From assembly GCA_965221695.1 (NCBI GenBank), contig OZ244905.1, positions 1,376,001 through 1,440,000 of the forward strand: 64,000 nucleotides of DNA. The letters run 5' to 3'. The translations under genes were made by a program, and so were the position numbers. This DNA comes from Gammaproteobacteria bacterium. Lineage in GTDB: Bacteria > Pseudomonadota > Gammaproteobacteria > Eutrophobiales > Eutrophobiaceae. How positions within the stretch are numbered: position 1 is the first letter of the stretch; the number at the start of each line of letters is the position of its first letter. The notes beneath the pieces were generated by a model. The model was not told the origin of the DNA, searched no databases, and saw only the letters and a program-made list of their open reading frames with translations. Of this stretch, positions 9,162-63,015 are shown piece by piece.

Positions 9162-9270
9162 AAGGAACTTTTAATTGAGCCGGTAATTGAGCCGGAGTAT
9201 CTCTGACAAGTCTTGGATAGACATGTTCGGAACTCCCTTAATTTCAGGTTCCTATCGTAGAGAGATGTTC
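9162..9270. repeat. Decayed copy of the five-hairpin element
   Basis: ctctgacaagtcttggatagacatgttcggaactccc (9201-9237) versus ctctgacaagtccaggatggacttgttcagagtttccc at 60711-60748; flanking ctaaggaac and caggttccta. Confidence 0.6.
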
Positions 9271-18151: not shown

Positions 18152-18237
18152 CCCGCAACAGCGGGTGTCCAGTCTACTACTGTGTCGCCTGAAAGGCGGC
18201 GCTTTGTTTTACTGGATTCCCGCTTGCGCGGGAATGG
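18152..18237. repeat. ~90 bp three-hairpin REP/RIME-like repeat, copy 1
   Basis: cccgcaacagcggg..tccag...tgtcgcctgaaaggcggc...ctggattcccgcttgcgcgggaat; matches the reverse complement of 33590-33680. Confidence 0.8.
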
Positions 18238-19233: not shown

Positions 19234-19520
19234 GGATGTACAGGACTGTTTAATTTAATGTCGATAGACAGGATTATCTAACATGGATGCACAGGATCAT
19301 TTAACATTGATACACAGGATTAACAGGATTAACAAGATATTATAATTTATAATATGGGAGCTTCGTTAATTGAAAACCTCAGCCCGGATTCAGGCAGTCT
19401 ACTGCAAAAACAAATAATAACTATTTTATCCTGTATATCCTGTACATCCATGTTAAATAATCCTGTGTATCAATGTTAAGTAATTCTGTTCATCCATGTT
19501 AAATAATCCCGTGCATTTAT
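19226..19520. repeat. Mirrored array of ~23 bp repeats (TTTAACATGGATGNACAGGAT) forming a large imperfect palindrome
   Basis: About four forward units at 19226-19338 and four reverse units at 19428-19520; 19301-19322 and 19458-19479 are exact 22 bp reverse complements. Confidence 0.85.
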
Positions 19521-20613
19521 GGACGACCACGCTTCCGTAGAATTCTCGGAGGTCTGCAAGAGTTACGACGGGCAGACATTTTCGGTCCGGGACTTCAGCT
19601 TGAGTGTCCGGCATGGTGAGTTCGTCACCCTGTTGGGGCCATCCGGGTCCGGTAAGACGACCTGCCTGAAGATGCTGGCCGGCTTCGAGGAACCGAGCAG
19701 CGGCGAAATCCGGTTGAACGGCCGTCCCGTCAACCAGGTCAAGCCCTGGAAGCGGAACATCGGTGTCGTGTTCCAGCACTATGCGCTGTTCCCGCACATG
19801 ACGATTGCCGAAAACCTTGCGTTCCCCCTGCAAGCCCGGCATATCCCCAAGGACGAGATAGAAAAGAGTGTCTTGCGCGCACTGGACATGGTGCAGTTGC
19901 GAGATTTTGCCGGGCGCCGTCCCGCACACCTGTCCGGTGGCCAGCAGCAGCGGGTTGCCATCGCCCGCGCGCTGGTATTCGAGCCGGACCTGATCCTGAT
20001 GGATGAACCCCTGGGCGCGCTGGACCGGCGCCTGCGCGAGGAGATGCAGTACGAGATCAGGAACCTGCAGCAACGGCTGGGAGTCACGATGATCTACGTA
20101 ACCCATGACCAGGGCGAAGCCATGGTATTGTCGGACCGGGTCGCGGTCATGGACCAGGGGCGAATTTGCCAGGTCGCCTCGCCTGAGGCTTTGTACGAGG
20201 AACCGCAACGCCTGTTTGTCGCGAATTTCATCGGCGAAAACAACCAGGTCGAGGGGCGGATTCTCGACTGCAACCCGGACGAGTGCCGGGTGGAGGTGGG
20301 CGGGCAAATTGTGCGCGCATTCCCGGTGGCCGTTGATGAAAACGATACGCACACCTGTCTTACCATCCGGCCTGAGCGGGTGGCCCTGAACCCGCCCCCG
20401 GATCTCTACCCCAACTGTTTTGAGGCAGAGGTGAAAGACATCATCTTCATGGGTGATTACCTGCGCGTTCATGCCGCGCTTCTTGGACGTTCACAGTTTA
20501 TCGTCAAAATTCCCAATATCATCGGACATGGCGCAATCCTCCCGGGGGATACCGTCACCCTCGGCTGGCTGGTTACCGATTGCCGGGCGCTGGATGCCGG
20601 GGTTTCGGAATGA
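19519..20613 (+). CDS. Polyamine-type ABC transporter ATP-binding subunit (PotA-like)
   Basis: [34 protein letters not shown]-like C-terminus. Confidence 0.92.
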
Positions 20614-25877: not shown

Positions 25878-25997
25878 GGGGGTATTATATCTCATTTCTC
25901 AAGCCGGTATGCGCCCGTACCCATAATCGGTTATCATGTGGCGCTTTATCAACCGCGAACAGCGCCGGCTCTTTCAGCGGGTTCTTAAAGCAAACTG

Positions 25998-26044
25998 AGG
26001 AAGCTCTGAACAAGACTATCCTGGACTTGTCAGAGTACGGAGAA
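25998..26044. repeat. Partial copy (first hairpin) of the five-hairpin element
   Basis: ggaagctctgaacaagactatcctggacttgtcagagtacgga is nearly identical to the reverse complement of 60706-60748. Confidence 0.8.
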
Positions 26045-26049
26045 TAATT

Positions 26050-26574
26050 ATGCGTTTAACATGGTCACTTATACTACTGCTGATGCTGCCAGGTCTCGCC
26101 AGCGCGCACGGACCGTCAAGGAAATCGCTGAAACTTGAGGTCAGCATTGATGCCGGCGCCGAAAAAGTCTGGGCATTGCTCAATGAATTCTGCTCGATCG
26201 CGGAATGGAACCCCGGCGTAACCGACTGTGAGATGGACGCGCCCGACCAGCCCGGAACCATCAGGACCATCACTCTTGCCGCCGGCGGCGCCCTGGAAGA
26301 AAAACTGGGCAAGGTAACGCCGGAAACGATGCGCATCCAGTACACGCTGGTAAAATCGAATTCGGACGCGCTGCCGGTCAGGACAATGGGATCGATATTG
26401 ACCGTGAAACCGGTTGACGACGGGACCTCGACCTTGGAATACAAGGCCGCTTTTTACCGGGCCTACCCGGGCATGGACCCGCCGCCTGAACTGAATGACG
26501 AAGCCTGCGCAGAAGCCATCCGCAACCTGTACGAACCCGGTCTGAACAGCCTGAAGGCAGCCGCGGAACAGTAA
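26050..26574 (+). CDS. Exported SRPBCC family protein, MxaD-like
   Basis: Signal peptide then HGPSRK, KVW, WNP, AFYR.YP...PPPELNDEA, as in MxaD-type proteins. Confidence 0.75.
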   Translation: MRLTWSLILLLMLPGLASAHGPSRKSLKLEVSIDAGAEKVWALLNEFCSIAEWNPGVTDCEMDAPDQPGTIRTITLAAGGALEEKLGKVTPETMRIQYTLVKSNSDALPVRTMGSILTVKPVDDGTSTLEYKAAFYRAYPGMDPPPELNDEACAEAIRNLYEPGLNSLKAAAEQ

Positions 26575-33589: not shown

Positions 33590-33680
33590 CCATTCCCGCG
33601 AAAGCGGGAATCCAGTGAAACAAAAGGTCGCCCTCCGGGCGACACAGAATCTGACTGGACTCCCGCTTTCGCGGGAGTGG
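33590..33680. repeat. ~90 bp three-hairpin REP/RIME-like repeat, copy 2
   Basis: cattcccgcgaaagcgggaatccag...gtcgccctccgggcgac...ctggactcccgctttcgcgggagtg. Confidence 0.85.
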
Positions 33681-52660: not shown

Positions 52661-52688
52661 TCCTGATACCTGATCGTTGTTTAACAAA

Positions 52689-52837
52689 GCTCTGAACAAG
52701 TCCATCCTGGACTTGCCAGAGCACGCAAAACAAAAATGCGATTTTTGTTTTGCTCCCAAAATCAATGCCTTATGGTCATTGATTTTGGCGATACATCCCT
52801 GTATCGCAGGAAACTCTGTCTTAAGCAGAGTTTCCTC
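52689..52837. mobile_element. Five-hairpin ~150 bp repeat (candidate IS5-related MITE), full copy A
   Basis: Five adjacent stems; aligns end to end with the reverse complement of 60595-60748. Confidence 0.8.
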
Positions 52838-52933
52838 AACAAAGCTCTGAACAAGTCCATCCTGGACTTTTCAGAGCGCTAAAAACATTTAGCATTTTAG
52901 AGATGGAAACGAAAAATGTCGATTTTTCATTTC
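52838..52933. repeat. Tandem partial copy of the same element
   Basis: aacaaagctctgaacaagtccatcctggactt occurs exactly at 52683 and 52838, followed by a decayed second stem (gaaacgaaaaatgtcgatttttcatttc). Confidence 0.8.
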
Positions 52934-52939
52934 TTCAGT

Positions 52940-55036
52940 TCACTTTTGCTCGCTCCACTGTTGAAAACTGCCACCGGATCGCGCCAATTGTTCCAGTAAC
53001 GCGGAAGGCGTCCACCACAGGTCGCCATAGCGGGAGCGGTATTTTTCAACTGCCGCCAGCACATTATCAAGACCGACCATGTCGGCATATTGCATGGGGC
53101 CGCCACGGTAGCGGGGCATGCCGTAACCATTGACGAAGATTACATCAATATCGCCGGACCGTATGGCAATCCCTTCTTCCAGCACGCGCGCGCCTTCGTT
53201 GATCATGGAATACAGCAGACGTTCGATGATTTCCTCATCGCTGACGTCGATTTGTTTCACGCCCAGCGATTGCGCTTCGCGCCGCGCCAGTTCCATCACC
53301 TCGGGATCAGGCACGGCTTTTCTTCCTTCGTAACGATAAGTCCCGGCGCCGGTCTTCTGGCCCAGACGCCCCATTTCAGCGAGCACAGAGATCATTCGGC
53401 AGTAAACCGGATCGTCGGGCCGGTCCTGCCATTCGTTATTCAGCTTGTAGAATATGTCGAGGCCGGACAGGTCCATCACCGCGTGCGGACCCATGGCCAT
53501 GCCCCAGTCAAACATAACCTGGTCGACCCGCTCAGGCGGGATACCTTCAAGCATCATTTGTTGCGCCTCCCTGATATAAGGGAAGAACATGCGGTTGCCG
53601 ACGAAGCCGAAGCAGACTCCCACCAGGACGCCCACTTTGCGTATTTTCTTTGCGATGCCCATGGCCGTTGCGATAACATCGGCGGCAGTCTGTTCGGCGC
53701 GTACGATCTCCAGCAACTTCATGATGTTGGCCGGCGCAAAGAAGTGCATGCCGATTACGTCCTGCGGGCGTTTCGTGACAGCGGCGATCTCATTCAGGTC
53801 CAGGCTGGAAGTATTGCTCGCCAGGATGGCGCCGTCTTTACAGACCTCATCCAGCTTTGCAAATACCTGCTTTTTTACCTCCATGTTCTCGAAAACGGCT
53901 TCGATTACCAGGTCAGCCCCTGCAATATCCCCATAATCGGTGGTCGGCGAGAACATTTCCATCGCCTGTTCCAGTTGTGCTTGTGTCCTGCGCCCCTTGT
54001 CGACCGCGACCGAGTAGTTGTTACGGATGATCCCCAACCCTCGCTCCAGGCCGGCCTGGTCTGCCTCGAGTAGCGTAACCGGCATACCGGCATTGACGAA
54101 GTTCATCGCAATGCCTCCCCCCATGGTGCCAGCGCCGATGACCGCTACGCTGTTTATCTCCCTGGCGGGGGTGGTTTTCGGGACATCAGGTATCTTTGCG
54201 GTTTCCCGTTCCGCAAAGAACAGGTGGCGTTGCGCCTGGGAATGGGTGGAGGACTTGCACTCACTGAACAGCCGCCGTTCCGTTATCACCGCGTCCGCGT
54301 AGGATTGATTCACGGCTGCCCGCACACATTTAAGGATCTGGAACGGGGCGAAGAAACCCCGGGCCTTGCGCGCCAGTTGCTGCTCATACTCGGCGTAAAA
54401 CGCATCATCCATACCCGTTGCGTCGACATCAAGTTGGCTCACCCGTTTCAGCGGCGCCGCATCGGCCAGCAATTCAGTGGCGTAAGCGATGGCGCCGGCG
54501 CGTAAATCACCTTCAACCAGCTTTTCGATTATGCCGGCCTCCAGCGCTTCCGCGGCGCCGACCTGGCGACCTGAAGTCATCATCTCCAGCGCCTTGCGCG
54601 CGCCAACCAGGCGCGGCAGCCGTTGTGTGCCGGTGGCGCCGGGCAGCAGACCGAGGTGTACTTCCGGGAGTCCCACTCTCGCGCCGGGCAACGCACAACG
54701 GTAATGGCAACCCATGGCCGTCTCCAGGCCGCCACCCAGGGCAGTGCCGTGGATAGCAGCCACGATCGGCTTCTCCGAGGCCTCGAATTTCTCCACCAGT
54801 TCCGGCAACCAGGGATCTGCAATGGGTTTGTCGAATTCAGTGATGTCAGCGCCGGCGATGAACGTTCTGCCCGCGCAGATCAGCACTACGGCCCTGGCCG
54901 CGTCATCGGCTGCGAGCCGCTCCAACGCATCCCAGCAACCTTTCCTGACTGCCGCAGACATCGCATTCACGGGTGGATTATCAATGGTAATGACGGCAAT
55001 GCTGTCTTCGATTTCGTAGCTGATTGTAGCTGGCAT
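52940..55036 (-). CDS. Bifunctional enoyl-CoA hydratase / 3-hydroxyacyl-CoA dehydrogenase
   Basis: DNPPVNA, AGADI, GGGLE, GLPEV, GAGTMGGGIA, EAVFE, SNTS, GMHFF. Confidence 0.93.
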   Translation of the reverse strand: MPATISYEIEDSIAVITIDNPPVNAMSAAVRKGCWDALERLAADDAARAVVLICAGRTFIAGADITEFDKPIADPWLPELVEKFEASEKPIVAAIHGTALGGGLETAMGCHYRCALPGARVGLPEVHLGLLPGATGTQRLPRLVGARKALEMMTSGRQVGAAEALEAGIIEKLVEGDLRAGAIAYATELLADAAPLKRVSQLDVDATGMDDAFYAEYEQQLARKARGFFAPFQILKCVRAAVNQSYADAVITERRLFSECKSSTHSQAQRHLFFAERETAKIPDVPKTTPAREINSVAVIGAGTMGGGIAMNFVNAGMPVTLLEADQAGLERGLGIIRNNYSVAVDKGRRTQAQLEQAMEMFSPTTDYGDIAGADLVIEAVFENMEVKKQVFAKLDEVCKDGAILASNTSSLDLNEIAAVTKRPQDVIGMHFFAPANIMKLLEIVRAEQTAADVIATAMGIAKKIRKVGVLVGVCFGFVGNRMFFPYIREAQQMMLEGIPPERVDQVMFDWGMAMGPHAVMDLSGLDIFYKLNNEWQDRPDDPVYCRMISVLAEMGRLGQKTGAGTYRYEGRKAVPDPEVMELARREAQSLGVKQIDVSDEEIIERLLYSMINEGARVLEEGIAIRSGDIDVIFVNGYGMPRYRGGPMQYADMVGLDNVLAAVEKYRSRYGDLWWTPSALLEQLARSGGSFQQWSEQK

Positions 55037-55128
55037 GGATATTTACTGTCCTGTTGTTGTCTCAGGGCAGTAATCCTAATCGGTATCGGTTGATATGACA
55101 ACCTCGCGGATATACCTTTCCGGCTATA

Positions 55129-55596
55129 TCAGGTGGGAATGGGCAGCTCCGTTCTTTTCGTCACCGCGCGCAAAGCGAAGCTGGACCTGACCCGCGCGAC
55201 ACCGGGCAATGCAGTCAACTGTTCATGGTGGATGCGTTCATAATCGGCTGCGTCTGCGACGACGACGCGCAACAGGTAATCGTATTCGCCGGACATCAGG
55301 TAGCACTCCATGACTTCAGGGACCTGGGCCAGGGCGGCTTCGAATGCATCCTGGTCTTCCCGGCGCTGTCGGTTCAGCGCGATTTCCACGAACACATTTC
55401 CCGGCAACCCAACCGCCGCCTGGTTGATCAGCATCGCAAAGCCACCAATCACGCCGGCCTGCTCCAGTAACCTGACCCGGCGCAGGCACGCGGACTCAGA
55501 CAAATTGACCCGCTGCGCGAGCCGAACATTACTGATGCGGCCATCCAGTTGCAGTTCATGCAGAATAGCGTGATCTGTCCTATCCAGTGATAACAT
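55129..55596 (-). CDS. Lrp/AsnC regulator (AldR-like)
   Basis: LQLDGRISN..LA..VNLS.SACLRRVR.LE, ECYLMSG..DYLL; divergent from ald. Confidence 0.92.
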   Translation of the reverse strand: MLSLDRTDHAILHELQLDGRISNVRLAQRVNLSESACLRRVRLLEQAGVIGGFAMLINQAAVGLPGNVFVEIALNRQRREDQDAFEAALAQVPEVMECYLMSGEYDYLLRVVVADAADYERIHHEQLTALPGVARVRSSFALRAVTKRTELPIPT

Positions 55597-55597
55597 T

Positions 55598-55685
55598 AGA
55601 ATTATATTTGATAATTTTAGATAAATTATAAGAATAATTCTAATTATACACGATATTATCCAATATTTTGCAAAGAAATTCTCTT
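55598..55685. promoter_or_regulatory. AT-rich divergent promoter with Lrp-type sites
   Basis: agaataattct, gatattatc and agaaattctct palindromic boxes between lrp and ald. Confidence 0.5.
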
Positions 55686-55764
55686 CACTTTTGACTAGAC
55701 TTCTGTCTCAGAAACCTCTGGATTTAGCCAGATATTCGGGTTAACCCAACCAGGAGCAAACACG

Positions 55765-56883
55765 ATGCAGATCGGAGTACCCAAAGAGACCAAGAACCAT
55801 GAATACCGTGTGGGTCTGACGCCGGCCGGAGTGCAAGAGCTGGTACAGGCGGGACACCAGGTATTGGTCGAAACCAATGCCGGCAACGCGATCGGCATGT
55901 CCGACGCCGATTATGTCGGCGCCGGCGCGGCGATTGTTGCCAACGCACGCCAGGTGTTTGCCGGGGCCGACCTGATCATAAAGGTAAAGGAGCCCCAACC
56001 CGATGAATGCCGGCTGTTGCGCCCGGGTCAGACCTTGTTCACCTACCTGCACCTGGCGCCGGACCCGCTGCAGACCAGGTTGCTGCTGGACTCCGGCGCC
56101 ATCGCGATTGCTTATGAAACGGTCACCGCGCCGGACCGGACGCTGCCTTTACTCGCTCCCATGAGCGAGGTGGCGGGGCGGCTGTCGGTACAGGCAGGGG
56201 CGCACTGCCTGGAAAAAGCGCAAGGCGGTTCCGGCGTGCTGCTGGGCGGCGTCCCGGGCGTGGCGCCGGCCAAGGCGCTGGTCATCGGTGGCGGTGTAGT
56301 GGGCGATAATGCCGCGGCCATGGCCTTGGGGATGGGCGCCGACGTGACCTTGCTGGATTGTTCCCTGCCGCGCCTGCGCCAACTCGACGCGGAATACGGC
56401 GGACGGGTCAAATGCGTTTATTCAACCCGGGATGCCATTGAAGACTATGCGCTTCAGGCTGACCTGGTCATCGGGGCAGTCCTGCGTCCGGGCGCCACGG
56501 CGCCGAAATTAATCGGAAAAGACCTGGTCAGACGCATGAAGCACGGTTCGGTCCTGGTTGACGTCGCCATTGACCAGGGAGGATGTTTCGAAACCTCCAG
56601 GCCGACCACGCACCAGGCGCCTACTTATATCGTCGATGGCGTCGTGCATTATTGTGTCGCGAACATGCCCGGCGCAGTCCCGCGTACTTCCACGCTTGCC
56701 CTGAATAACGCAACCATGCCTTATATCAGGGCGCTGGCTGACAAGGGTGTGAAGCAGGCCTTAACGGAAGACCGCGGATTACGCAACGGCTTGAATGTCT
56801 ACCAGGGTCGCATCACCTGTGAAGCGGTGGCGAACGATCTTCATTACGATTACCTGCCGGCCGTGGAGGCTTTGGCCGCCTGA
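55765..56883 (+). CDS. ald: Alanine dehydrogenase
   Basis: [46 protein letters not shown]. Confidence 0.96.
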
Positions 56884-56893
56884 AAAACAGCGC

Positions 56894-57616
56894 TCAGTAC
56901 ATATGCTGGCCGCCATTGATGCTCAGGGTCGAGCCGGTAATAAATCCCGCTTCATCACCGACCAGAAACAACACCCCGCGGGCGATTTCTTCGGCCTTGC
57001 CCAGACGGCGCACAGGAATCTTGGCGATGATTTTTTCCAGCACGTTCTCCGGCACTGCCCGAACCATGTCGGTGTCAATATAGCCCGGCGCAATCGCATT
57101 GACTGTTATCCCCTTGGCCGCGCCTTCCTGAGCCAATGCCTTGGTAAACCCATGTATGCCAGACTTGGCGGCCGCATAATTCACCTGACCGTACTGACCC
57201 GCCTGGCCGTTGATTGAACCGATATTCACGATACGGCCGAAACCGCGCTCGCGCATACCATCGATGACACACCGTGACATATTGAAGCAGGATCCCAGGT
57301 TGGTCTGGATCACCCTGTCCCACTGCTCGAAATCCATCCTGTGCATAGTGCCGTCTCGGGTAACACCCGCATTGTTGACCAGCACATCCACCGAACCCAG
57401 GTCCTGCTCTATCTGGGTAACGGCATCCCGGCACGCATCGTAATCACCTACATCGAACTTGTACACGTTAATCTTGGTGACATCCTGGAACCTGGCTGCT
57501 GCCTCGTCGTTGCCGACATAACTTGCCGCCACATGGTATCCCGCTTTCTTCAGGGCGATTGAAATGGCCCCGCCGATACCCCGGGTGCCGCCTGTTACTA
57601 CTGCTACTCTTGCCAT
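56894..57616 (-). CDS. phbB: Acetoacetyl-CoA reductase
   Basis: TGGTRGIG, NNAGVTRD, SINGQAGQYGQVNYAAAK, STLSINGGQHMY. Confidence 0.92.
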   Translation of the reverse strand: MARVAVVTGGTRGIGGAISIALKKAGYHVAASYVGNDEAAARFQDVTKINVYKFDVGDYDACRDAVTQIEQDLGSVDVLVNNAGVTRDGTMHRMDFEQWDRVIQTNLGSCFNMSRCVIDGMRERGFGRIVNIGSINGQAGQYGQVNYAAAKSGIHGFTKALAQEGAAKGITVNAIAPGYIDTDMVRAVPENVLEKIIAKIPVRRLGKAEEIARGVLFLVGDEAGFITGSTLSINGGQHMY

Positions 57617-57696
57617 GGTGTTTACCTCTGATTAAATCGCGTAGTATAGCATCAACGGGAAAGTGGAATAATAATGCTATACTTGATAGTAACCAT

Positions 57697-59034
57697 ATGG
57701 CCATTGCAATGAAACTTCTTCGGGTTAGGTCTGCTTTCTCAGCGTTTTTACTGCTGTTCGGGATGTGCTGCCATGCGGCCAATGCGCCTGCCGATACAGA
57801 TAATCAAGCTCAGACCGCGGCTGAACTGACCCGGTCGATCGCGGATTACGAACAGGAAATCCAGGCCCGGGAGGCGGAATACGGCGTTTACGATCCGGCC
57901 ACGGGTGAATACCTGTTATCCGTCGGCCTGGTATACCAGAATGCCGGCAGGCACCAGGAAGCGGCCGATGCATTCAACCGCGCCCTGCAAATCAAGCGGG
58001 TTAACGAAGGATTGCAAAGCGCCGGGCAGTTACTCATCTTAGAACAACTCATCAAAAGCAATATCGCCAGGGCGGATTGGGAGGAAGTGGATCGCAACTA
58101 TCAGCAGCTATTGTGGATTCACAAGCGTAATTATGAGCCCGGCGACCCCCGGTTGCTGCCGGTCGTGGATACGGTCGGGCGCTGGAAGTTGAAGGCCTAC
58201 AAGGAAAACCTGCTCGATAGCAGCGCAATCAGGATAATCGGTGAATCCGAAAAACTGTTCAAGGATACGATCAATATCCTGGAACGCCAGTATGGCGAAA
58301 ACGACCCGAGGCTGATCAACCCTCTATACGGCAGGGCATTGACGAATTACCAGTATGCGATAGAAGTTGCCAATACCCCGCAGGATGAGTTTCGCGGCGC
58401 CGGCAGTCCGACCAGGACCCAGGTGATATGCCGCACCGTCCCGACCGCAAACGGCGGCGCCAGACGCATCTGCAACACCATCAGGGTACCTGATCCGAGT
58501 TACTACGCCAGCCAGAGCAGCAACAAGGACTTCGCGTTGGGGCAACGTCTTGTCTCGGTAGGCAAGGCATTGCAGCATATTATACTAATCCATGAAGCCA
58601 ATCCGGACCTGCCTGAGGATTCCCATGCCCGGGCGCTGGCGCACCTGGGCGACTGGAACCTTCTCAGGGGCAAGAAAACCACGGCCTACAAGAACTACAA
58701 GGCCGCCTACGAATTGCTCGTGGACAGTGACGAGTACCAGGAAGTGATTGACGAATTATTCGGCAAACCGCAGAACCTGCCGGCCCTGCGCCTGCCTCTG
58801 CCCGAGATAGATCAGAAACTGGAAGAAGACAAGACCACATCCGTTCTTGCCTCGTTTGACGTGTCGCGTACCGGGCGCGCAAAAAATGTGCAGATTATCG
58901 AATCTGAACCGCCGGACGCGACTTCAGCCCGCAGGAAAGCCAAGAAAACCATCCGCGGGCGTTTGTACCGGCCACGTTTTGAGAAAGGCGAGCCGGTGGA
59001 CACGGTGGGGAATAAAATCCGTATAGTAGATTAG
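57697..59034 (+). CDS. Exported TPR protein with C-terminal TonB-like domain
   Basis: Signal-like N-terminus, TPR-like helices (IKRVNEGL, LGDWNLL), C-terminal FDVSRTGRAKNV...YRPRFEKGEPV. Confidence 0.7.
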   Translation: MAIAMKLLRVRSAFSAFLLLFGMCCHAANAPADTDNQAQTAAELTRSIADYEQEIQAREAEYGVYDPATGEYLLSVGLVYQNAGRHQEAADAFNRALQIKRVNEGLQSAGQLLILEQLIKSNIARADWEEVDRNYQQLLWIHKRNYEPGDPRLLPVVDTVGRWKLKAYKENLLDSSAIRIIGESEKLFKDTINILERQYGENDPRLINPLYGRALTNYQYAIEVANTPQDEFRGAGSPTRTQVICRTVPTANGGARRICNTIRVPDPSYYASQSSNKDFALGQRLVSVGKALQHIILIHEANPDLPEDSHARALAHLGDWNLLRGKKTTAYKNYKAAYELLVDSDEYQEVIDELFGKPQNLPALRLPLPEIDQKLEEDKTTSVLASFDVSRTGRAKNVQIIESEPPDATSARRKAKKTIRGRLYRPRFEKGEPVDTVGNKIRIVD

Positions 59035-59120
59035 ACACCATGTTTGAACTTTCGTACAAGCTCAGACATGGTGTCTTCGGGTTAGCCCAGCGCGTCGCCG
59101 GAAAAAATTTTGACGCCAGC

Positions 59121-59153
59121 CCGGTATCGCGGGCGGAACGCCCGCGATACCGG
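59121..59153. terminator. Perfect 15 bp GC-rich stem-loop between convergent genes (terminator or REP-like)
   Basis: ccggtatcgcgggcg-gaa-cgcccgcgataccgg; no clear U-tract. Confidence 0.5.
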
Positions 59154-59166
59154 AGTGGACTTAACG

Positions 59167-60564
59167 TCATTGATTGTCGTTACGCAAGAGATCGACATCC
59201 TCGGTGTCCGGCATCAGCACGAACTCTGGATAGGACTCGATTCCCAATTCTGCCGAATCCTGGCCGAGTTCCTCTACCTCGGCAGACACCCTGACTCCAA
59301 TGGTCTTTTCGATTGCGTACCAGATGATCAATGAAACCAGGAAAACATAAACACCAACGCTAAAAATGCCGGTAAGCTGCGCCTTCAGGTCTCCACCGGC
59401 GGCAATGCATACAGCGAGCGTACCCCAGATACCGGCAAACAGGTGCGCGGAGATCGCGCCGACCACATCATCCACCTTCAATCCTTCCAGCAGCTTCATT
59501 CCCAACACACAGATGACCCCGCCAACCAGGCCGATAATGATTGCCCAGGTGTGGGCGACGATATCCGGCCCGGCGGTAATCGATACGAGCCCGGCAATTG
59601 CGCCGTTCAGGCCGGCCAACAGGTCTACCCGGCCCAATAGCGGCCTTGAAACACTGAGCGCCGCAATCACGCCGGCCGCCGCCGCCAGGTTGGTGTTGAC
59701 CAGCACGTTGCTCATTGCCACTGCATCTACAGCGCCGCCCAACGCCAGTTGTGAACCGCCGTTGAACCCGAACCAGCCCAGCCACAGGATAAAAACACCC
59801 AGGGTGACGATAGGAATATTGGAAGGCGGCGTGGGCTTGACGCTGCCATCGGCGCGATATTTTCCAAGCCGCGGGCCAACTATCAGCGCACCGGCCAGCG
59901 CGGCCCAACCCCCGGTCGAATGCACAATTGTGGAACCGGCAAAGTCCTGAAAACCCATCTCGTCAAGCCAGCCTCCTCCCCAGGTCCAGGCGCCGACGAT
60001 GGGGTAGATAGCGCCGGCCAGACAAGCCGTAAACAGCAGGAATGACCACAACTTTACCCGTTCCGCCATGGTGCCGGAAACAATGGAGGCCGTGGTCGCG
60101 ACGAACACCATCTGGAAGAACCAGTCGGACATTACGGAATAGCCGTTATCGATCACCGCCGCTTTGGCGCCCTCATCGCCAGACAGCAGCGCAAGCTCCT
60201 CCGCCGACGGGCCGTAAGTGAAGCTGAACGAACCGATCCAGCCGGACACATCCGTGTACATCAGGTTGTAGCCCAGCAGGTAGTACATCAGGCCGGCGAT
60301 GGAATAGAGCCCGATGTTCTTCAGGCAGATCACCGAAGCGTTCTTGGTGCGCACCGACCCCGCTTCCAGCATGGTGAAGCCGGCGCACATCCACATTACC
60401 AGCGCGCCCCAGACCAGAAATGAAAACGTATTGAAGATGAACTGCAATTCCTGCTCTACCGCGGCAAAGGCGCAGAATGAAGCAAGCAGTAAAACAAACC
60501 CGGTCAGCAATCTTAGCGGCAGCGTCGAGCGACGGAAACACAGAATGGAATTATCGCGTTTCAT
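59167..60564 (-). CDS. amt: Ammonium transporter (Amt family)
   Basis: FFQMVF, SG.MAER, DFAGSTIVH, LWLGWFGFNGGS, DDVVGAISAH. Confidence 0.95.
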   Translation of the reverse strand: MKRDNSILCFRRSTLPLRLLTGFVLLLASFCAFAAVEQELQFIFNTFSFLVWGALVMWMCAGFTMLEAGSVRTKNASVICLKNIGLYSIAGLMYYLLGYNLMYTDVSGWIGSFSFTYGPSAEELALLSGDEGAKAAVIDNGYSVMSDWFFQMVFVATTASIVSGTMAERVKLWSFLLFTACLAGAIYPIVGAWTWGGGWLDEMGFQDFAGSTIVHSTGGWAALAGALIVGPRLGKYRADGSVKPTPPSNIPIVTLGVFILWLGWFGFNGGSQLALGGAVDAVAMSNVLVNTNLAAAAGVIAALSVSRPLLGRVDLLAGLNGAIAGLVSITAGPDIVAHTWAIIIGLVGGVICVLGMKLLEGLKVDDVVGAISAHLFAGIWGTLAVCIAAGGDLKAQLTGIFSVGVYVFLVSLIIWYAIEKTIGVRVSAEVEELGQDSAELGIESYPEFVLMPDTEDVDLLRNDNQ

Positions 60565-60594
60565 CAGAATTTCCCCCCAATGTTATTGTAGTAT

Positions 60595-60748
60595 GAGGAA
60601 CCTCTGATTAAGTCAGAGGTTCCTACGATACAAGGATGTATCGTCAATATCAATGACTGTAAGGCATTGATATTGTGAGGAAAACAAAAATCGCATTTTT
60701 GTTTTCCGTACTCTGACAAGTCCAGGATGGACTTGTTCAGAGTTTCCC
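60595..60748. mobile_element. Five-hairpin ~150 bp repeat (candidate IS5-related MITE), full copy B
   Basis: Ends GGAACCTCTGATTAAG and CTTGTTCAGAGTTTCC form an imperfect terminal inverted repeat; five stems. Confidence 0.82.
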
Positions 60749-61609: not shown

Positions 61610-61809
61610 AAGGGTTAACGCCGCTGATACGCAAATGTATCAGATACACAAGTCATAGTTGTACCGGCGCCATCGCGCCGACTTCTTCAGGCATATCTTT
61701 CCCAGCCCGATACCGGAGAACTGCATAGTCATCACGACGCAGACCCGACAATAACAGATCTTAAACTAATCCCCGCCGTAACGGGGTTTACCAAGCGAAA
61801 ATTACCTGT

Positions 61810-62019
61810 TCAGCTAATCACAACCACTTCCGTTGCATGAAATCCCTTCGGTCCTTGTTCAGCGGTATAGGAAACGCTCTGTCCTTCATTCAAAGTCTTG
61901 TAACCATCAGTTTTTATGGACGAATAATGCACAAAAATATCATCTCCACCGTCCGACGGCTCGATGAAACCAAATCCCTTGGCATTGTTGAACCATTTCA
62001 CGGTCCCCCTCATACTCAT
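61810..62019 (-). CDS. Cold-shock domain protein (CspD-like)
   Basis: [33 protein letters not shown]. Confidence 0.93.
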
Positions 62020-62223
62020 ACTGCTCTCCCCCTGAATAATTAAATTTCAGATTACTGGTTTCTGCTATCCTGGTGTGCGGCAGAGCAAAATTTGTCCCTG
62101 CCCGAAACCATGACAGCACATGGACAATAATAATCAATTTTTTCCCGTTTGCCAACAGTTTATTCAACAAATGTTTATTAGGAAAAAATAAACTGTCCGC
62201 TTTTGTCTTTACACCGAACTACG

Positions 62224-63015
62224 TCAAGAAGAGCGGGTTTTGGATGTTTTATCGGGACTTGAATCGCCAGACTGAGAGTTTTTGTCCACACTGACGCGCT
62301 TGTTCCGGTGGCGACGAATCAGCGCGAGGGTCATCAAGGGCCCTGACGCGGCATAAATCAGCGCCAGCAAAAACAGGACGACTGAAGGTCTGACCGCAAC
62401 GAACGCGATGATCAGGACAATGAAGAGGATGCTGAAAAACGGCACTTTGCCGCGCAGGTCGATTTGTTTGAAGCTGTGATAGCGAATGTTGCTCACCATC
62501 AACAGGCCGACGAGGATTGTCAAGACAAACGCAAACAAGGTTATGGCCGACTCGTCCAACGGTTGGCCGACAACGCTGAACCAGACCAGGCCGGCGATGA
62601 CGGCCGCCGCAGCCGGACAAGGCAACCCCTGAAAATATCGCTTGTCGGCGCTACCAGCCTGGGTATTAAACCTGGCTAGGCGCAGCGCCGCCGCCGCCGC
62701 GAAAATAAATGCGGCCAACCAGCCCAGTTTGCCCAGGCCCTGCAACGACCATTGATATACCACCAAGGCAGGAGCGAGTCCGAACGAAACCATGTCCGAG
62801 AGGCTGTCATACTGAACGCCGAAATCGCTTTCCGTCCTGGTGATCCTGGCAATGCGACCATCCATACCGTCCAGGATCATTGCCACGAACACGGCAATGG
62901 CGGCGGTTTCGTAGCGCGCGCCGATCGCGGCAACGATCGCGTAGAATCCGGCAAACAGCGCCGAGGTCGTGAACAGATTGGGCAGGAGGTAAATGCCCCT
63001 GCGGCGCTCGATCAT
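62224..63015 (-). CDS. pssA: CDP-diacylglycerol--serine O-phosphatidyltransferase
   Basis: YLLPNLFT, DGMDGRIAR, DSLSDMVSFGLAP, RLARFN. Confidence 0.95.
   Translation of the reverse strand: MIERRRGIYLLPNLFTTSALFAGFYAIVAAIGARYETAAIAVFVAMILDGMDGRIARITRTESDFGVQYDSLSDMVSFGLAPALVVYQWSLQGLGKLGWLAAFIFAAAAALRLARFNTQAGSADKRYFQGLPCPAAAAVIAGLVWFSVVGQPLDESAITLFAFVLTILVGLLMVSNIRYHSFKQIDLRGKVPFFSILFIVLIIAFVAVRPSVVLFLLALIYAASGPLMTLALIRRHRNKRVSVDKNSQSGDSSPDKTSKTRSS

Follow-up and report, generated by a model that had tools for sequence, protein, structure and literature searches.

A multi-copy IS5-type miniature element with five covarying hairpins in a Eutrophobiaceae genome

The stretch analysed here (termed the window) comprises 64,000 nucleotides of contig OZ244905.1 (positions 1,376,001 to 1,440,000) from a gammaproteobacterium of the Eutrophobiaceae, and it carries two copies of a non-coding element that folds into five abutting hairpins (H1 to H5). 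The element belongs to a large, non-autonomous mobile family with IS5-type ends, a 4-bp target duplication and insertion polymorphism between related genomes. All lineages of the family preserve the base pairing, and the covariation is real and far above chance. The best explanation, which we regard as probable, is an IS5-type MITE (a transposable element of miniature size with inverted repeats) that is mobilised in trans and whose folded form is under purifying selection.

Both copies were located within positions 52689-60748, and folding reproduced the five stem-loops that the initial annotation of this DNA had drawn. Alignment of the family placed the left limit four bases further out than first given, and the full unit is 151 bp long:

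52685-52835, plus strand: copy A, a complete G-type copy of the MITE (151 bp); H1 52689-52722, H2 52725-52753, H3 52757-52787, H4 52788-52807, H5 52809-52835.
60597-60747, minus strand: copy B, a complete A-type copy of the MITE (151 bp); hairpins by window position H1 60743-60710, H2 60707-60679, H3 60675-60645, H4 60644-60625, H5 60623-60597.

Folded as RNA, copy B reached -73.9 kcal/mol, against a mean of -28.3 for its shuffles (z -12.8); folded as DNA, copy A gave the same five hairpins at -53.3 kcal/mol (z -13.5). In each case none of 200 shuffles was as good. The five pairing-preserving double changes that had been reported between the two copies are all present in the sequence, at element columns 5-38, 42-68, 76-100, 104-123 and 129-147.

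The element had been described from two full copies; the family proved far larger. In the genome of origin (a single contig of 3.54 Mb, 96.85% complete), a blastn search with copy A returned 151 matches, of which 87 span 130 nt or more. An nhmmer profile built from 73 clean copies, defined by a regular expression, gave 201 hits in the same genome, which reduce to 185 non-overlapping members (89 full and 96 partial) with a footprint of 19,038 bases, or 0.54% of the genome. The full copies are divided evenly between the strands (44 plus, 45 minus), and 78 of the 89 lie outside gene calls in a genome that is 90% coding, according to our crude in-house gene calls. The partial copies are mostly deletion forms that retain whole hairpins, such as H1+H4+H5, H1+H5 (about 67 bp) or H1 by itself (42 bp, both ends included). 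Two large subfamilies were recognised, the A-type with 50 copies and the G-type with 22. Family matches also occur in 19 of 22 other genomes of the genus and in 4 of 18 sampled genomes of other genera, from the same taxonomic family or elsewhere in the class, where the copies share 75-84% identity.

The limits of the element are sharp in the family alignment and consist of terminal inverted repeats: GGAA-N-CTCTGA on the left (in full, GGAA-N-CTCTGA(ACAAGTCC)) and its inverse, TCAGAG-N-TTCC, on the right. Among the 73 regex-defined copies, the 4 bp on the two sides are identical in 56, and 5-bp identity was found in none. The duplicated words are TTAA (30 copies), TTAG (7), CTAA (5), TAAA (3), CTAG (2), TAAG (2) and a few others; TTAG, CTAA, TAAA and TAAG are among the non-palindromic ones. 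Empty sites were found in both directions when the genome was compared with its closest relative (G008). One copy of the relative stands between two TTAA words where the window's genome has a single TTAA, with flanks that are 100% and 99.3% identical; in the reverse case, the copy at genome position 40385 is lacking from the matching site in the relative. At genome positions 872338-872364, a 27-bp remnant (left end, CTTAA, right end) occupies a site that holds a full 151-bp element in the relative (L236:599-749), with CTAA flanks in both genomes; the remnant looks like the result of a deletion from the left end to the stretch of H5 that repeats it directly. Among the first 41 copies of the relative, 19 formed orthologous full-length pairs with the window's genome.

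Some further observations concern the way in which copies are joined to each other and to genes. Units of the 27-bp type number about 314 on the two strands of the genome, each counted about twice and those within full copies included. Just past the end of the window, at genome positions 1445257-1445529, two copies are joined head to tail, the second starting at the expected left H5 arm of the first; the junction suggests recombination or alternative end use at an 11-bp direct repeat. By the crude gene calls, 66 gene 3' ends lie within 120 nt of full copies, and 11 stop codons stand 1-2 nt from the element; in those 11 genes the duplicated TTAA, TTAG, CTAA or CTAG target probably holds the stop codon. 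In 7 further cases the open reading frame extends 8-10 nt into the element, by the same calls, and probably ends at a TGA within the terminal repeat.

The initial annotation had likened the end of the element to an IS5 terminus. The terminus it gave equals the annotated end of IS5A of E. coli K-12 (GGAAGGTGCGAACAAGTCC), and 15 of its 19 positions agree with the element end, in which the terminal inverted repeat begins GGAA and ends GAACAAGTCC. IS5 duplicates 4 bp and prefers YTAR targets. The exact 19-base end of the element turned up at 98 or more places in other genomes, spread over many phyla. There it begins full insertion sequences as well as MITEs that differ in size (from 153 to about 355 bp), with 4-bp repeats on either side of many of them. 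These MITEs form many unrelated families; their hosts include genomes of Alcaligenaceae, Methylobacter, Burkholderiales, Acidobacteriota and Thermoanaerobaculia, and their flanks are usually CTAG, CTAA or TTAA. At three of these places (L053, L056 and L063), open reading frames behind the 19-mer encode the domains DUF772 and DDE_Tnp_1.

Within the genus, a relative of the IS5-type transposase was found in 10 of 23 genomes. In three sister genomes (G001, G014 and G022) the transposase lies inside an insertion sequence of 1149-1151 bp, flanked by TTAA or CTAA, with ends of the form GGAA-N-CTCTGATCAAG(T/C)CC. The insertion sequence of G001 measures 1149 bp, has the ends GGAAGCTCTGATTAAGCCC and GGAAACTCTGATCAAGTCT between TTAA flanks, and contains an intact reading frame of 313 amino acids that scores 315.5 bits with NF033581 (IS5 family transposase; cut-off 140). 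This insertion sequence of about 1.15 kb is the likely helper of the MITE, with which it has the ends alone in common. The copies in the window's genome are probably stranded at present, because no such transposase was found there. Judged from sequence features, and mobilisation itself aside, every feature tested fits the IS5-family MITEs.

A quite different route of spread had also been put forward, namely that of a REP/BIME- or REPIN-like hairpin repeat copied as single-stranded DNA by a RAYT (HUH, IS200-type) transposase, with which the short hairpin modules, the mosaics and the deletion forms would agree. We consider this extremely unlikely. No match to Y1_Tnp (PF01797) was obtained in the window's genome, whereas the same model found matches in 6 of 14 genomes that served as a control; terminal inverted repeats and 4-bp duplications are marks of cut-and-paste DDE transposition, and the ends equal those of IS5-family insertion sequences. 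REPs are moved by RAYT, and REP and REPIN sequences have neither DDE-type terminal inverted repeats nor a target duplication. Identity with them is contradicted by the absence of a RAYT gene and by the presence of both features in the element.

The covariation of the hairpins was assessed in an alignment of 82 out of 91 distinct copies, of which 34 derive from the window's genome and the rest from relatives and other genera; sequences of odd length or weak match were left out (L107, L171, L044, L136, L180, L189, L193, L127 and L084). In this alignment 94.4% of the cells are paired, and two-sided changes occur at 26 of 58 pairs (280 cells), with 4 to 7 such pairs in every helix. None of 500 shuffles reached any of the five covariation measures, and controls in which the partner was slid along the sequence gave 10-17 pairs and 32-44 cells. 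Within the window's genome alone, 17 of the 58 pairs show at least two Watson-Crick types: for example, columns 42-68 are GC in 52 copies, CG in 22 and TA in 5; columns 76-100 are AT in 45 and TA in 39; and columns 129-147 are CG in 63 and AT in 15. Of 12 two-sided changes seen inside the subfamilies, 10 again yield a Watson-Crick pair. The earlier claim that all five stems covary between copies A and B thus requires a distinction: the pairs are real, but the differences represent a single subfamily split and not five private events, since they are diagnostic of the two subfamilies.

The rates of change were then compared between paired and unpaired positions. Among 72 copies of the two large subfamilies, with the element ends left out, the 108 stem sites carry 84 distinct variants and the 31 unpaired sites 51 (p 4.6e-5); counting singletons alone gives 54 in stems and 34 outside them (p 4.9e-4). 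For copies at the same site in two genomes, 77 loci of the closest relative were used; those covered by a single colinear match to the window's genome gave 45 hits, or 38 without overlaps. One had too few columns, two that differed by more than 10% and carried a different subfamily at the site were dropped, and 36 segments were used. In these, differences amount to 29 of 2570 stem positions (1.13%), 17 of 894 unpaired positions (1.90%) and 1229 of 51820 flanking positions (2.37%); stems differ from flanks at p 1.1e-5, and unpaired positions from flanks at p 0.44. In 36 of the 46 differences within the element one of the states is rare in the family, and these were therefore taken as new mutations. 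Among the 28 changed pairs, 27 had changed on one side and 1 on both, each one-sided pair being of Watson-Crick type in one of the genomes and disrupted in its counterpart.

Several points weigh against this explanation, both in its mobile part and in its selective part. The window's genome gave no match to DDE_Tnp_1 (PF01609), and a tblastn search of it with three IS5-type transposases gave a best E-value of 0.039; the helper proposed above is judged from its ends alone. The left end of copy A is degenerate (CAAA instead of GGAA) and its flanks read TTAA and TCAA, while those of copy B read TTTG and TCAT, such that the target duplication of copy B is not preserved. The slid-partner control favours the structure, which was derived from the same sequences. 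When all 89 full copies are taken together, singletons number 67 in stems and 23 at unpaired positions, with 77% expected in stems, and show no stem deficit; this global count is dominated by old, divergent copies, and the deficit is seen solely within the two large subfamilies. In the orthologs, the contrast between stems and unpaired positions falls short of significance (p 0.09, where the initial 18 pairs had given 0.039), and the flanks that serve for comparison are mixed coding and non-coding DNA according to the crude gene calls. Finally, copies do exchange sequence: in 2 of 38 orthologous segments the two genomes hold members of different subfamilies at one site, and one further pair has switched columns 129-147 on both sides. 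One site of this kind (L214:1461-1611 of the closest relative against genome positions 2705201-2705352, with 24 differences in 135 columns) is a replacement or gene conversion between copies. Gene conversion could reduce divergence without selection, and it remains a confounder.

These exchanges count in favour of the principal rival, according to which the palindromes are functionless and are kept perfect by mutational processes alone, through template switching between arms during replication and through conversion within the pool of roughly 185 copies. That template switching can produce compensatory changes in one step is documented (PMC8794818). Transversion flips without a wobble intermediate make up about half of the compensated pair types (AT/TA at columns 76-100 and 77-99, GC/CG at 42-68), and one H1 copy has its loop inverted from TCC to GGA. 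The wobble states likewise show no strand asymmetry (G-T 32, A-C 42, p 0.30; 8 versus 6 among the ortholog changes). Unbiased correction from arm to arm, however, keeps the number of changed stem sites and should give one two-sided change for each reversion; 11-17 would be expected in place of the single one seen (P of one or fewer at most 2e-4). A single-base bulge in H1 (A12), which such correction should erase, is kept in at least 90% of the 82 sequences, and conversion should protect loops as well as stems, yet unpaired positions do not differ from flanks in the test given above. We therefore hold this rival to be unlikely.

The initial annotation had offered selection on the fold or its active repair as alternatives. 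The first agrees with the slower change of stems relative to unpaired sites and flanks. Symmetric repair is disfavoured because changes in place were one-sided in 27 cases and two-sided in one, and we concluded that the slow change of the stems is not due to symmetric correction by template switching. We infer that purifying selection on the folded form is a better reading than either neutral decay or symmetric arm-to-arm copying.

The purifying-selection reading can be laid out as follows. The element bears just the ends that an IS5-type DDE transposase recognises and has to move in trans, inserting at TTAA, TTAG, CTAA or CTAG and duplicating those 4 bp. H1 is made up of the left end and an inverted copy of it, H5 of an inverted copy of the right end followed by the right end itself, and H2-H4 are internal palindromes, H3 with an IHF-like motif that falls at the exact midpoint of the element. 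On the minus strand, GGA is displayed in the loops of H1 and H4. In resident copies, the stems and the GGA loops change at roughly half the rate of the remaining unpaired sites and of the flanks. As a leading guess, the fold would be used for binding of proteins such as CsrA to transcripts and of IHF to the DNA. The data demonstrate a mobile element with IS5-type ends, a target duplication, insertion polymorphism, covariation and a slower change of its stems; the insertion sequence that moves the family, selection rather than homogenisation as the cause of the slow stems, and the use of the fold are what we infer from them.

Examination of the loops provides the background for this guess. Across genera, the TCC loop triplets of H1 and H4 (columns 21-23 and 112-114) are 98% identical, compared to 90% for the stems and 83% for the other unpaired columns, and a change in them occurs in 2 of the 72 subfamily copies. 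On the minus strand H4 reads ACGAUACA-AGGA-UGUAUCGU; its 12-mer, RUACARGGAUGU with GGA in the loop, corresponds to the CsrA consensus obtained by SELEX (systematic evolution of ligands by exponential enrichment), as given in PMC4347634. The sole variable base of the H4 12-mer coincides with an R of that consensus. The genome contains 103 sites for the 12-mer where about 1.3 are expected by composition, and 98 of them lie within the family; all 12 positions match in 79 of the 89 full copies and in 54 of 82 cross-genus copies. On the same strand, H1 reads CCAGGAUGG in 66 of the 89 copies. The genome also codes for CsrA (90 bits, cut-off 27). H3, at the exact centre of the element, contains an IHF-like motif in 60 of the 89 copies (189 matches to the consensus genome-wide), and ihfA is present.

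The family might accordingly be viewed as a mobile cassette of high-affinity CsrA sites, in which a minus-strand transcript would offer two hairpins with GGA loops, one of them the SELEX optimum. On the motif matches we regard this as a tentative idea and as doubtful. In gaps between tandem genes, 24 elements have the same orientation as the genes and 11 the opposite one, such that the mRNA more often bears the UCC strand, which argues against a role for CsrA. Near gene 3' ends the corresponding counts are 38 and 28 (p 0.27), with no clear orientation bias.

The conserved apical loops, together with the strong covariation, might also point to a structured RNA gene or a cis-regulatory RNA (a small RNA or a riboswitch-like element) that merely happens to be multi-copy. 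Here the gathering-threshold Rfam scan of the window gave no hits. E-value scans of two loci (L001 and L031) and of copy B gave sub-threshold noise, the best being STnc250 at 22.5 bits against a gathering cut-off of 42. RF01731 was without a match in the window, in L001 and L031 (E up to 1), in copy B (E up to 10) and in the whole genome (E up to 1, 129 candidates), and the control genomes had no match either. One promoter-like and one terminator-like site were seen in the region of copy B, both at the level of shuffled sequence. The even strand split and the mixed gene orientation do not fit an RNA of this kind, and target duplications and empty sites indicate insertion as DNA; we consider such an RNA very improbable. 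The argument of the initial annotation against a riboswitch stands, in view of the two orientations and the lack of an Rfam match: copies A and B face opposite ways relative to their downstream genes, and all four neighbouring genes lie on the minus strand.

The surroundings of the two copies, and the other members and fragments of the family in the window, are as follows:

52685-52835 (copy A), neighbours: a FadB-like gene (stop 52940) and a TonB-dependent receptor gene, both on the minus strand.
52788-52807, minus strand: H4 of copy A, with the same CsrA-type motif as copy B.
52842-52887, plus strand: degenerate partial copy immediately behind copy A, model columns 3-48 (H1 and the start of H2).
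60597-60747 (copy B), neighbours: a Peptidase_M50-family gene (stop 60756) and an ammonium transporter gene (start 60564), both on the minus strand.
60625-60644, plus strand: H4 of copy B read on the minus strand of the element; the 12-mer matches the CsrA SELEX consensus RUACARGGAUGU, with GGA in a 4-nt loop.
25999-26057, plus strand: family member cut short to model columns 1-59 (H1 plus a portion of H2), ending beside an ATG that is preceded by GGAG.
9201-9244, minus strand: degenerate H1-like fragment, 80% complementary to 25992-26035 and not among the nhmmer hits.

At copy A, a transcript of the strand of the neighbouring genes would bear the GGA-loop version of the element. The partial copy behind it starts with CAAA, the same oddity as in copy A, the flanks of which were located in relatives. 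For copy B, a search for an empty site found intergenic DNA too diverged to align in four relatives (G001, G003, G004 and G019) and the left flank only in the closest relative. In four public sequence runs, all made up of contigs, breaks fall at 60596/60597 and at 60746/60747, which are the edges of copy B, and the word depth in such contigs rises from 65 outside to 7,476-42,397 within the copy. Some public contigs jump 68-86 bases of the element middle, like the deletion forms. The truncated member ends at GGAGAATAATTATG, and the next open frame resembles a signal peptide; its altered H2 arm may, as read from the sequence, provide the ribosome-binding site of that frame.

Other repeats were noticed in the window. 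A different hairpin repeat with ATTCCCGCGAAAGCGGGAAT-like arms, probably dRS3-like, occurs at 18152-18237 and 33590-33680, and direct and inverted repeats of 23 bp (ATCCTGT.CATCCATGTTAAATA-like) occupy 19268-19521; words like the latter flank two MITE copies elsewhere in the genome (897383 and 831968). At about 61764-62253 on the minus strand (L031:2674-3163), the model of the cspA thermoregulator (RF01766) finds a match that stays below threshold (36.8 bits, gathering cut-off 78, E 6.8e-7) and is truncated at the model's 5' end.

The element was compared with several known systems of short repeats. It shares the kind of ends with IS5 and the IS5-family MITEs, such as BrickBuilt and MITEPgRS of Porphyromonas gingivalis and the ATR of Neisseria, which is linked to ISNme1. 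Like the IS5 family, it has a 4-bp TTAA/TTAG/CTAA/CTAG duplication and, in sister genomes, a helper candidate of the NF033581 family. Published IS5-family MITEs share solely their ends with their insertion sequence (PMC4596501), and the same is true of this element. Unlike them, it shows no sequence likeness to them past the ends, it consists of five local hairpins rather than one long foldback or a minisatellite, its hairpins covary, and its resident copies are conserved.

The Correia elements of Neisseria (CREE/NEMIS) are likewise MITEs, some 100-200 bp long and mostly intergenic, with copy numbers that can reach into the hundreds. The element differs from them in its IS5-type ends and 4-bp duplication, that of Correia elements being TA, and identity with them was rejected for these reasons. 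Correia elements contain a functional IHF site, and their transcripts fold and are cut by RNase III (PMC10969869); the IHF-like motif of the present element, a consensus match only, lies at the exact centre. The ERIC/IRU and REP/BIME repeats of enterobacteria, for which action in transcripts has been proposed (same source), are also intergenic, palindromic and multi-copy. They have no sequence relation to the element, ERIC being one long imperfect palindrome. By analogy, the element may be said to resemble Correia or ERIC as a foldable intergenic insert.

A further likeness is to TwoAYGGAY (RF01731), a dispersed multi-copy element with GGA in its hairpin loops. In a 2026 preprint, the TwoAYGGAY of Pseudomonadota is extended by three hairpins and tied to repeats, among them a short motif lying upstream, with GCTCT as one of its variants (10.64898/2026.09.22.753630). 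The loops of our element, AAGGAU/AGGGAU and CAGGAU, are unlike the AYGGAY of TwoAYGGAY, and the element has in addition IS5-type ends and target duplications. With the RF01731 model unmatched in the element, the window and the genome, identity was rejected; the extended TwoAYGGAY may be a related phenomenon. Within the text open to search, no description of the element was found and its end string CTCTGAACAAGTCC occurred in no paper; the terms 'CsrA' and 'miniature inverted-repeat' were paired there in the Rfam 12 paper alone. The family is an undescribed variant of the IS5-family MITEs whose hairpins appear constrained.

MITEs are usually treated as decaying junk, the fold of which is a by-product of inverted ends. 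The present family departs from this view in that five separate hairpins keep their pairing across several genera, and resident copies change more slowly than neighbouring DNA even without a transposase. It also spreads, by consensus match, about 100 copies of an optimal CsrA-binding hairpin through one genome. Were the cassette reading true, the family would plant CsrA control on new genes, or its members would jointly soak up CsrA in the manner of the CsrB/RsmZ RNAs; host selection on CsrA binding would then explain why the lower stems covary, why the GGA loops hardly vary, and why resident copies change slowly in genomes that lack the transposase. If the constraint is not real, the family is still a clean repeat with sharp limits, which annotation pipelines and RNA finders that rely on covariation will go on flagging. 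If it is real, the family would be a tractable case in which to tell selection from templated repair as the source of compensatory changes, and, as a product of selection, it would be a natural case of a transposon that delivers ready-made RNA- or protein-binding modules.

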